From: an uncultured delta proteobacterium
Lineage (GTDB): Bacteria > Myxococcota_A > Polyangia > Fen-1088
Assembly (NCBI GenBank): GCA_963737265.1
Contig: CAVTRY010000022.1
Location: 1 to 64,000, forward strand
Reading direction: 5' to 3'
DNA: 64,000 bases
Shown here: positions 35,648 to 38,074 of the stretch, one piece after another
Position numbering within the stretch: position 1 is the first letter of the stretch
Layout: every line of letters starts with the position of its first letter
Translations under genes and position numbers: made by a program
The notes under the pieces: generated by a model
Seen by the model: only the letters and a program-made list of their open reading frames with translations
The model's database searches: none
What the model was told of the DNA's origin: nothing

Positions 35648-38074
35648 CTACCGTGACAAAGGCGGGTTCGCGTTTTGGACGAGCCGTAAGGCCTGCTCGG
35701 GAAACCAATCGCCCGCGGCCGGGTCGACCATTCCCCACAATGGATCGAAGTGGTTTCGCGCGTCGCCGGTGATGCCCCAGGGATTGTATTTCGAATAGTC
35801 CCACGCACGCGCGCCGCCCGCGGTATCGCATGGCCCGTCCGACTCGCCCGGTGACTTGAGCCACAAGAACGCATCCAGCAGCGGCATGCCCGTGTCGGCG
35901 GTGGGCGACTGGCCGAGACCCGCGCTAGGGGGATTGCACCAGTTGGCGGCGTTGAGCTTGTCGAGAATGTCCTTGGGCTGGTTGTACGGAGCCAGCGCAT
36001 AGGGAGACGTGTCGAGAACGCCACGGCCATTCCGGCTGGTGTCGATCACGAAGTGCGCAAGGGCTGCCGGTGCGGCAGGCGGATTGGCGGCGCTGTCGAC
36101 GTTGGCCGCGTACCAGGCATCCGCGACAGCCCTGGCTCCTTCGTCGTTCGGGCTCGTGATCAGGTCCGGGCTGGCGCAGGCCGAGAAATGGCCGATGCTC
36201 TGTCGTCCATTGGCTGGATTGCTTGCGTAGTAGATGCATTTGGAAATCCAGGTGGCGAATTGGACCGACCGCGGCGTGGGCTGGAAGTTCGCGACATTGA
36301 TGGCAAATCCCCGCACCTTTTGCATGCCGGCCTTCACCAAACGGTAAGCGACTTCTCCGACGGGCAGCCAGCCGCTGTGCGTGCCATCGAGATAGACCGA
36401 AGCGTTCGGCGCCTTACCGACCACGCTGTCTGCGGCGTAGTTGAGCTGTGCATAGCGTTCGGCGGGAGTGGCCCCCGGCGCTGGGATCTGGTTACCTTGG
36501 GCATCCGTGACCGTGGGTTTGCACCAATCGGTGAGGCCCTCGATGGTGGTGTTGTTGGGAACAATTCCGGTGCTGTCGGGTTCCAGAACAACAACCGCCC
36601 TTTCGTTGCCGATTCCGCTTGCGAAGGCATCAATCCACGCCCTGTACGCGGCGCCATCGGCGGCTCCGCCCGCCCCGTATTGGGCACAATCGCGGAAGGG
36701 CAGGTTGTAGGTGACAAGGATCGGAACACGCTGTTCGCGAACCGCCCGCACAATCGTGTTTCTGACCCCGGCTTGCACCTCGTCGGGCGAGCCCCCGACA
36801 AACCAAACCGCGTGCGGCGTGGCGGTCATGGCGGTGAGCGCGCCAGCCTCTTTGAAGGCATTGGTCTTGGCGAGGCTCGCGATCTGTTGAACCACGCCGG
36901 GAGAGGCCGGCGGCGTGTAGAACTGGGTGCCGGAAGGCAGCGCGCGGTTGCTGGCGCGGCGGGACGGTCTGGAAGCGCGGTGAACAACAATCCATGCCGT
37001 CGCCGCGCACAAGACCAAAGCCGCCACAGCGCCCCATGTTCGCAACGAGTGGTGATTTCGGGTCGGCCGCACGGGATTCCCGGGCGCCGCCGCGGCGGAT
37101 GCCGCGCCCTCGTTCGCGCGCCGGAGGTCTTCGCTCGGCGTCTCGGGCCAGACCTCGCGGCGAGCGAATGGCGCCAGCGCCTCGCCGAGATCCTTGGCGG
37201 AGGCAAAGCGTTCGCAAGGATCGGGTGCGAGCGATCGATGCACGATCTCGACAATTGGCGCCGGAAGCTCGGGCAGCAGTCCTGCGAGCGGAATCGCGGG
37301 CTGCGTGGCGATGTGATGGAGAATGGCGTTGTGCGACTCTCCTGGATGGGGTCTTTGCCCGGAAAACATCTCGTAGAGCACGGCCCCAAGCCCGTACACA
37401 TCGATTCGATGATCCGCGTCCCTGTCGCCGCGCGCTTGCTCGGGCGACATGTAGAACGGAGTTCCGAGCATGGTTCCCGTGCGCGTGGCCGCGCCTTGCG
37501 TGTCGGTTGCTTCGAGCTTTGCAATGCCGAAGTCGAGAACTTTGAGCAGGTCGGTTTCGTCCTCGCGACGGCAGACGAACAGATTCTGCGGCTTGAGGTC
37601 GCGGTGAATGATGCCGGCGAGGTGGGCCGCGTGCACGCCCTTGCACGCCTGAATGCACAGGTCGGCTGCGCGCCCGACGGGCAGGTGCTGTTCGCGCGCG
37701 AGCAGTGCCGCGAGGCTTTCGCCGGTGAGATGCTCCATCACGATGAAAGGAGATCCATCACTGGTGATGCCGAAGTCCAGCGCTGCCGCGATGTGCTCGC
37801 TCTCGATGCGCCCGGCGCTCTCGGCCTCGCGCTGAAATCTCTCCAAGCTCTCCCGCTGCCGGGAGAAATCCGGGCGTAGCACCTTCACGGCGAAGCGTCG
37901 CTTGACGACGATGTGTTGCGCCTCGTACACGGCGGCCATCCCGCCCTCGGCGAGAAAGCGGACGACACGATACTTGCCCCCGAGGATCTCCCCGACCTCG
38001 CGCCCTGGTTCGGCTCGATCACGCGAAGAGCTCCCCTGGTGAGCGCGACCTTCCCTGGTAGTCCATGCGAGCAT
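35648..38074 (-). CDS. Ser/Thr kinase - TM - GH6 cellulase domain fusion (receptor-like kinase)
   Basis: One continuous 808-aa ORF. Kinase motifs AEGGMAAVY, AVK, HRDLKPQN, DFG, SPE; TM WGAVAALVLCAATAWIVV; GH6 motifs YNLPFRDC, LEPDS, DTSRNG, WCNP, PGESDG. Confidence 0.92.
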   Translation of the reverse strand: MLAWTTREGRAHQGSSSRDRAEPGREVGEILGGKYRVVRFLAEGGMAAVYEAQHIVVKRRFAVKVLRPDFSRQRESLERFQREAESAGRIESEHIAAALDFGITSDGSPFIVMEHLTGESLAALLAREQHLPVGRAADLCIQACKGVHAAHLAGIIHRDLKPQNLFVCRREDETDLLKVLDFGIAKLEATDTQGAATRTGTMLGTPFYMSPEQARGDRDADHRIDVYGLGAVLYEMFSGQRPHPGESHNAILHHIATQPAIPLAGLLPELPAPIVEIVHRSLAPDPCERFASAKDLGEALAPFARREVWPETPSEDLRRANEGAASAAAAPGNPVRPTRNHHSLRTWGAVAALVLCAATAWIVVHRASRPSRRASNRALPSGTQFYTPPASPGVVQQIASLAKTNAFKEAGALTAMTATPHAVWFVGGSPDEVQAGVRNTIVRAVREQRVPILVTYNLPFRDCAQYGAGGAADGAAYRAWIDAFASGIGNERAVVVLEPDSTGIVPNNTTIEGLTDWCKPTVTDAQGNQIPAPGATPAERYAQLNYAADSVVGKAPNASVYLDGTHSGWLPVGEVAYRLVKAGMQKVRGFAINVANFQPTPRSVQFATWISKCIYYASNPANGRQSIGHFSACASPDLITSPNDEGARAVADAWYAANVDSAANPPAAPAALAHFVIDTSRNGRGVLDTSPYALAPYNQPKDILDKLNAANWCNPPSAGLGQSPTADTGMPLLDAFLWLKSPGESDGPCDTAGGARAWDYSKYNPWGITGDARNHFDPLWGMVDPAAGDWFPEQALRLVQNANPPLSR

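Follow-up and report, generated by a model that had tools for sequence, protein, structure and literature searches.

For very few Hanks-type receptor kinases of bacteria are the ligand, the sensor domain, the direct partner and the target genes all known, and the idea that an enzyme domain can act as a sensor has so far been documented for clostridial RsgI anti-sigma factors. On the side of transcriptional output, Jelsbak, Givskov and Kaiser are said to have proposed in 2005 that the FHA-domain sigma-54 enhancer-binding proteins of Myxococcus xanthus are under Ser/Thr kinase control. In Clostridium thermocellum, the sensor module of RsgI6, a member of glycoside hydrolase family 10 (GH10), has very low activity and still binds xylan and cellulose; it is 57% identical to Xyn10D, whose promoter was activated by the sigma factor of RsgI6 in a reporter assay (PMC4711584). 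Here we describe a locus for which ligand, sensor domain, partner and targets can all be proposed from sequence. It lies in a stretch of 64,000 nucleotides (nt), hereafter the window, of contig CAVTRY010000022.1 from an uncultured delta proteobacterium (assembly GCA_963737265.1; Myxococcota_A, Polyangia), and it holds a gene that joins a Ser/Thr kinase to a domain of glycoside hydrolase family 6 (GH6). The locus appears to represent a means of beta-glucan sensing that has not been described in bacteria before, one that would combine three known kinds of component: receptor Hanks kinases, FHA-sigma-54 activators and glycoside-hydrolase-derived sensors.

A Ser/Thr kinase fused to a GH6 domain

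The translation describes a receptor-type Ser/Thr kinase that spans the membrane once and carries GH6 as its ectodomain. A sequence-only reading of this DNA had claimed an uninterrupted open reading frame (ORF) with all kinase catalytic motifs, one transmembrane helix and retained GH6 catalytic motifs, and each of these claims was borne out. The ORF runs on the minus strand from an ATG through 808 amino acids with zero internal stops, whilst the plus strand of the same coordinates contains stops, and both domains score above their Pfam cut-offs (Table 1). The kinase part carries every residue expected of a Hanks-type kinase, with the catalytic Lys64 in FAVKVL, the alphaC Glu83 in FQREAES, HRD and N164 in HRDLKPQN, DFG, and the APE-type Glu in SPE, and its best matches in the PDB are PknA and PknB (E ~3e-46). 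Between the kinase and GH6 parts, at the junction position given by the sequence-only reading, lies the only hydrophobic run of the protein, WGAVAALVLCAATAWIVVH. Because the kinase needs ATP, we infer that its side of this helix is cytoplasmic and that the GH6 side is extracytoplasmic. Four cysteines of the ectodomain (RDC, DWC, NWC and GPC) align with cysteines of 1tml that we take to form the two disulfides of that enzyme, and their retention would be in keeping with folding outside the cytoplasm. The periplasmic location proposed earlier for the ectodomain is a reasonable one, the named relatives being Polyangia or other Myxococcota, which are diderms.

The ectodomain retains the motifs TYNLPFRDC, LEPDS, YLDGTHSGW and WLKSPGESDG, and its core segments align gap-free to both T. 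fusca Cel6A (1tml) and M. tuberculosis CelA1 (1up0). In the phmmer alignment, Y456, D462, D500, D563, K740 and D746 fall on 1tml chain positions Y73, D79, D117, D156, K259 and D265, presumably the Tyr of the active site and the catalytic acid Asp117 with the residues that assist it. AlphaFold modelled the ectodomain with confidence from a 52-row alignment (pLDDT 87.2, pTM 0.89), and Foldseek placed GH6 endoglucanases first (1up0 at E 8.6e-22 with a TM-score on target of 0.85; also 1tml; 0.82-0.87 for the best GH6 endoglucanases), all of the top 50 matches being GH6 structures or Cel6A-derived scaffolds. By its PF01341 score, predicted fold and active-site residues the ectodomain thus belongs to GH6, at 22-26% identity to characterised GH6 enzymes in structural alignment and with ~140 extra residues in insertions. 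Signals for endo- or exo-action are split, as Foldseek ranks endoglucanases first while the C-terminal 130 residues, about a third of the domain, are closer by sequence to the exocellulase Cel6B (4b4f, E 2e-18). A nearer relative, 54% identical (237/436), is its paralogue, the lipoprotein-type GH6 encoded 11 kb away. The GH6 domain of the window's fusion copy may still cleave glucan.

The same fusion of Pkinase and Glyco_hydro_6, for which the sequence-only reading had suggested a search, recurs widely. Amongst the best 120 of 2260 homologues of the ectodomain (8000 scored candidates), which are related metagenomic sequences rather than independent samples, 74, the query included, also matched the kinase part and 46 were stand-alone. 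By tblastn, kinase and ectodomain were found in line on one strand in 8 related genomes from three genera of one family (loci L013/L002, L004, L005, L014, L015, L016, L017 and L018). Across the 74 proteins and 8 genomes the architecture is uninterrupted at 53-90% identity, with linker and helix in place. Consistent with this, the ESM Atlas holds a 74-member cluster in which 100% of members combine Pkinase and GH6, with Myxococcota as the commonest phylum, and the named records with a full-length match are metagenome-assembled genomes of uncultured Myxococcales or Polyangia. In 61 genomes, comprising the window's own and 60 relatives, the ectodomain subfamily (E <= 1e-40) was detected in 18; these included 17 of the 36 other genomes of the same family and none of the 24 from fifteen other families of the class. 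Outside the myxobacteria, the nearest ectodomain relatives are stand-alone GH6 proteins of Actinomycetota (L025-L032; Actinoplanes, Paractinoplanes, Nakamurella and Arthrobacter), 42-49% identical over residues 370-808, insertions included, which makes transfer between Myxococcota and Actinomycetota possible.

Kinase and hydrolase residues differ in how strictly they are kept across the fusions. The kinase K, E, HRD, N, DFG and APE are invariant in every fusion sequence that has the column (70-72 of 74), the sequences without kinase columns being N-terminal fragments. The acid D500, by comparison, is Asp in 62 of the 74 fusions and replaced in 12 (His in 7, Asn in 4, Gly in 1), against Asp in all 46 stand-alone relatives, and Y456, the Tyr of the YN.P.RDC motif, survives in 34 fusions and is replaced in the other 40, against 40 of 46 stand-alone proteins that keep it. 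All 12 fusions with a replaced acid retain intact kinase residues. The acid changed state at least four times on a FastTree tree (no bootstrap), and His occupies the position in a 7-member sister group of the 6-member clade to which the window's copy belongs. Since the kinase is invariant while the GH6 acid varies, the selected role of the ectodomain in the fusions would not need hydrolysis; sensing seems to be that role, with hydrolysis optional, and ligand binding is the obvious candidate for the selected function. The earlier proposal that the protein both hydrolyses and senses therefore divides: its sensing half fits the comparative evidence, whereas hydrolysis as the point of the protein fits poorly with an acid replaced in 12 of 74 fusions beside an invariant kinase.

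A linked activator and sigma-54-type promoters

The fusion gene is flanked by a secreted-type GH6 gene, directly downstream on the same strand, and upstream by a gene for a putative partner of the kinase (Table 1). In the latter, Pfam assigns FHA to residues 59-123 (9.7e-18), Sigma54_activat to 148-307 (2e-53) and HTH_8 to 417-448 (1.1e-7). Its motifs GR...SRRH...NG (the phosphothreonine-binding residues of FHA domains), GETGTGKE (Walker A) and GAFTGA complete the build of an FHA-type enhancer-binding protein, that is, FHA, AAA+ with GAFTGA and helix-turn-helix (HTH). An orthologue of this activator, 58-71% identical, lies immediately upstream of the fusion gene in 8 of 8 relatives, where it is read in the same direction and ends at the point where the fusion gene begins. 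In three of the relatives (G003, G006 and G007) the order of activator, fusion and secreted GH6 is that of the window, but with the activator turned the other way. A single rpoN gene was found in the genome.

Table 1. Features of the locus, numbered from the first base of the window
Feature	Position	Strand	Basis or remark
Secreted-type, stand-alone GH6 enzyme gene, 381 aa, putative target	34248..35393	minus	PF01341, 341 bits; signal-peptide-like N-terminus MTKLILAGLTLLMGPAAALGG
Sigma-54-type -24/-12 promoter TGGTACGCCGATTGC	35477..35491	minus	84 nt upstream of secreted GH6 gene
Two GGACGTCC palindromes (35541, 35563), 22 nt apart, candidate enhancer (upstream activating sequence)	35541..35570		Conserved island
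Kinase-GH6 fusion gene (P0001)	35648..38074	minus	Uninterrupted ORF; Pkinase and Glyco_hydro_6 both above Pfam cut-offs
GH6 ectodomain, residues 405-753	35816..36862	minus	Pfam PF01341, 196.5 bits (cut-off 27)
Predicted transmembrane helix, ~residues 346-365	36980..37039	minus	Hydrophobic run read by eye from translation
Hanks-type Ser/Thr kinase domain, residues 35-291	37202..37972	minus	Pfam PF00069, 134 bits (cut-off 31.7)
Left copy of 576-nt repeat	38135..38710		Inverted relative to right copy; the two bracket the activator
FHA - sigma-54 AAA+ - HTH_8 activator, putative kinase partner	38800..40230	plus	Pfam
Right, inverted copy of 576-nt repeat	40327..40902		99.65% identical to left copy (blastn); 100% complementarity in repeat scan
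Paralogous membrane kinase without GH6, 473 aa	41281..42702	plus	59% identical to fusion over kinase, linker and helix
Second GGACGTCC pair, 11 nt apart	48674..48692		Spacer before lipoprotein-type GH6 gene
Weaker sigma-54-type element TGGTCCATGAGTTGC	48819..48833	plus	2 mismatches; 59 nt upstream of lipoprotein-type GH6 gene
Lipoprotein-type GH6, 478 aa, putative second target	48892..50328	plus	PF01341, 224 bits; lipobox-like LGVTGC

The spacer before the secreted GH6 gene carries the footprint expected of an enhancer and a sigma-54 promoter, namely a palindrome pair with a -24/-12 element. The candidate promoter TGGTACGCCGATTGC has one mismatch to TGGCAC-N5-TTGC, with GG and GC separated by the 10 bases of the sequence pattern. 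Sites of this kind, GG and GC required, number 440 in the 13.1 million strand-bases of the genome (3.4e-5 per strand-base), and ~0.009 would be expected in this 254-nt spacer. The GGACGTCC pair lies 50-80 bases further upstream. GGACGTCC occurs 9 times in the window, against 1.71 expected, and 163 times in the 6.55-Mb genome, where only 4 pairs fall within 60 nt; two of these four have a sigma-54-like site, correctly oriented, no more than 300 nt after them, and both stand before GH6 genes of the window. Two GGACGTCC copies with a -24/-12 element of 0-1 mismatch were found in 4 of 4 genomes with a GH6 gene after the fusion (G000, the window's own, and G003, G006 and G007), the orthologous promoters being TGGTACGCCTCTTGC in G006, TGGCACGCGCCTTGC in G007 and TGGCACGCAGCTTGC in G003, the last two with no mismatch. 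In G008, a palindrome pair and promoter precede a GH6 paralogue elsewhere. Across an alignment of five spacers the mean column identity was 50%, the conserved columns clustering in the palindrome and promoter islands. From the gene linkage we infer that the neighbouring activator binds the GGACGTCC pairs. The four remaining GH6 genes of the genome have no convincing sigma-54 or palindrome signal before them.

Just downstream of the secreted GH6 gene lies a third Ser/Thr kinase gene (532 aa, 32506..34104, minus strand), whose product has a hydrophobic helix and no Pfam domain in its C-terminal 240 residues; G006 has an orthologue, 43% identical, close to its fusion locus (L015 18028-19125). Beyond the paralogous kinase in the window lies a TPR-PEGA gene, and in the relatives a TPR-PEGA gene travels with the same kinase and activator modules. 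Repeats of GGACGTCC or GAACGTCC also occur 100-140 nt ahead of those TPR-PEGA genes whose upstream neighbour is one of these kinase genes (window 42560-42600; L020 3581-3612 and 15608-15639; L013 10812-10831); in G000 and G001 they lie within the 3' end of the kinase ORF and code for (E/G)RP repeats, and those of G025 lie between genes. The repeats are not followed by any convincing -24/-12 site. Sigma-54-like sites before the TPR-PEGA genes (window 42705; L020 3733 and 15803; L013 10973) were rejected, as they overlap ATG-GCA starts.

Directly upstream of the kinase that lacks GH6, the remnant of a second activator was found at 41048-41276. Its positions 41196-41276 are 89% identical to the FHA-coding 39101-39181 and 41048-41099 are 73% identical to the leader at 38718-38769, with a spacing of 148 nt against 383 nt in the intact activator; given this remnant, the single intact activator may serve both kinases. 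The intact gene is itself bracketed by the 576-nt inverted repeat, which has ~40 copies across the contigs of the genome at 92-100% identity. In sequencing run X1, depth was 60-70 on the repeat against 3-4 on its flanks, and run contigs end at the repeat borders (38134 and 40327). Flipping the bracketed segment would restore the gene order of all relatives. The repeat also holds a 133-aa ORF (40419..40820, minus strand), which by eye we take to encode a GxxExxY-type small protein. Near the window start, 15-mers matching on opposite strands (189-203 with 4873-4887, and 790-804 with 4269-4283), noted in the sigma-54 pattern scan, suggest another inverted repeat of several hundred bases around ~3.5 kb.

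A proposed glucan-sensing circuit and its alternatives

These observations can be drawn together as a regulatory circuit. A beta-1,4-glucan fragment that reaches the periplasm would occupy the GH6 cleft of the fusion kinase, and occupancy would promote trans-autophosphorylation of the cytoplasmic kinase. Its phospho-threonines would then recruit the FHA-sigma-54 activator, or the kinase would phosphorylate the activator, which would bind the paired GGACGTCC sites and drive sigma-54 promoters before GH6 genes, so that GH6 enzymes are made. The secreted GH6 immediately downstream would be one target, and the lipoprotein GH6 probably another. We favour this full circuit, from beta-1,4-glucan receptor kinase through FHA activator and sigma-54 to GH6 genes, with some confidence; that the fusion protein is a glucan-sensing receptor kinase, taken alone, we hold more firmly. 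Because its catalytic residues are intact, the window's fusion copy may cut its own ligand and thereby end its own signal. A further-reaching version, which we put forward as speculation and think unlikely to hold in full, would be a complete self-referential glucan-sensing circuit of an undescribed kind, in which the ligand-binding domain of the receptor is a tethered duplicate of the enzyme it induces. Intact versions would degrade the ligand and report fragment flux rather than concentration, the lineages in which His, Asn or Gly has replaced the acid would have become pure binders, and the activator segment could flip between the two paralogous kinases, with and without GH6, re-wiring the input.

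Several points weigh against the circuit as drawn. In the window the activator is divergent from the fusion gene, unlike the co-directional arrangement in 8 of 8 relatives, and, given the inverted repeats on either side, this orientation could be either genuine or a product of the assembly. It is most similar (79%) to the activator of G001, which is paired there with a GH6-less kinase, so that it may serve the paralogous kinase of the window also or instead. The element before the lipoprotein GH6, TGGTCCATGAGTTGC, is weak on its own, as ~0.14 sites with two mismatches would be expected in that 428-nt spacer, and the GGACGTCC pairs at C7:438845 and 56037-56074 have no such promoter. The latter pair lies inside an ORF (55962..56705, minus strand), with no sigma-54-like site nearby. 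Given their overlap with start codons, the sites before TPR-PEGA genes cannot be counted as promoters. On the protein side, Arg residues are found at either end of the helix, so that its putative orientation follows from the kinase's need for ATP. On the comparative side, the homologues are metagenomic kin drawn from the best hits only and placed on a tree without bootstrap, and part of the 46 'stand-alone' sequences, nested amongst fusions, may be gene fragments.

The genome encodes seven GH6 domains, three of them in the window, and CBM2, LPMO10 and BcsB gave no match in it (99.5% complete, contamination 7.6%; four families searched, GH6 included). This is an unusual enzyme set, GH6-rich without carbohydrate-binding modules, CBM2 being the one searched genome-wide. 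The lack of CBM2 and LPMO10 points to an amorphous or soluble beta-glucan as a possible natural substrate, in place of crystalline plant cellulose. One can go further and suppose that the receptor kinase has a different ligand, such as the exopolysaccharide that the organism itself makes, or a beta-glucan, mixed-linkage or other, derived from the walls of prey, fungi or oomycetes, with a regulon for predation or matrix remodelling rather than for the use of plant cellulose. We regard this as unlikely. The missing CBM2, LPMO10 and BcsB favour it, as do the lack of carbohydrate-binding modules in the putatively regulated GH6 genes, the low identity of the ectodomain to characterised enzymes with its ~140 extra residues, and the TPR-PEGA gene that accompanies the same modules. 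It is opposed by the conservation of the cleft residues H566, W569 and W738, and with four families searched the genome may still hold other cellulolytic ones. To our knowledge, moreover, all characterised GH6 members act on beta-1,4-glucans, and some on mixed-linkage glucans.

Turning from ligand to function, the protein could act above all as an enzyme, namely a periplasmic cellodextrinase or endoglucanase anchored in the membrane, with a kinase that serves some other purpose, such as reporting envelope state, and a linkage to the activator that reflects other targets. At the four catalytic columns labelled on the tree, the window's copy and the five sequences nearest to it all have Y, D, K and D, the aligned cysteines are retained, the ectodomain model is confident, and the GH6 paralogues of the same genome are, by sequence, ordinary secreted or lipoprotein enzymes. 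Loss of the acid in 12 of 74 fusions, including a whole sister clade of seven, beside a constant kinase is hard to reconcile with such a role, and the conserved palindromes and promoter before GH6 genes beside the fusion tie the locus to GH6 expression; we consider an enzyme-first protein rather improbable. That two genes were joined by assembly or sequencing error is barely credible: contigs of four soil-metagenome runs from one study (best word share 0.40; none recorded as RNA) leave 36003-37409 nearly bare (only X2 at 36484-36634) and 36807-37409, with the junction at ~36950-37100, wholly uncovered, and one 155-nt X1 contig at depth 3.3 has an extra C after 37989 (codon 29) that, if real rather than an error, would put the kinase domain out of frame, but the same architecture on many independent contigs, in 74 database proteins and in 8 related genomes effectively refutes a joining error.

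Comparison with described systems

The fusion architecture is already present in public protein sets, unnamed or automatically named 'endoglucanase'. In open full text we found no description of a kinase-GH6 fusion or receptor; supplements and most subscription journals lie outside that search, and a myxobacterial kinome survey may list the architecture. A 2005 survey of bacterial kinase architectures (PMC1262709) does not use the words hydrolase, cellulase, glucanase or carbohydrate. If upheld, the circuit would extend the enzyme-domain-as-sensor idea beyond clostridial anti-sigma factors, to signalling by Ser/Thr kinases and control through sigma-54 among the diderm myxobacteria of soil, and it may explain how beta-glucan degradation is controlled in an uncultured, GH6-rich soil lineage of Polyangia. 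The family also offers a natural series, from ectodomains that are catalytically intact to ones that are dead by their residues, which is useful for following the evolution of enzymes into receptors.

RsgI6 shares with the fusion protein the plan of a transmembrane regulator whose extracytoplasmic glycoside-hydrolase sensor is akin to an enzyme of the controlled system. In both, catalysis is weak or dispensable, with binding kept in RsgI6. They differ in that RsgI6 is an anti-sigma factor of a monoderm, with regulated proteolysis and a GH10 module, whereas the fusion would work through a Hanks kinase and an FHA-sigma-54 activator in a diderm, with GH6. The fusion protein is not of the RsgI type, Pfam reporting kinase-type families and GH6 only and no RsgI_N. 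The Bacteroides hybrid two-component systems reportedly also link a periplasmic oligosaccharide signal to matching glycan-degrading genes in a diderm, but they do so through a histidine-kinase phosphorelay with a non-enzyme sensor and no sigma-54 route.

In its domain order the fusion protein resembles the PASTA kinases PknB, PrkC and StkP, which also place an N-terminal Hanks kinase, one helix and an extracytoplasmic region that binds glycan fragments in succession. It is not one of them: Pfam finds no PASTA domain in the fusion protein, and NF033483 (PknB_PASTA_kin) scores 259.5 bits, below its cut-off of 450, over residues 28-314 only. The difference lies in the sensor, which is an enzyme fold proposed to bind beta-glucan rather than a muropeptide binder. 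To CelA1 (1up0) and Cel6A (1tml) the ectodomain is alike in predicted fold and in all catalytic-site residues, and it departs from them in its 22-26% identity, its extra residues and its tether to a kinase. The activator of the window, finally, has the same build as the FHA activators of M. xanthus, namely FHA, AAA+ with GAFTGA and HTH, and is linked to a kinase gene. We know of no kinase partner, sensor, enhancer and targets that can be named for most of those proteins, whereas in this locus a putative kinase partner, its sensor, a candidate enhancer and probable targets can all be named.

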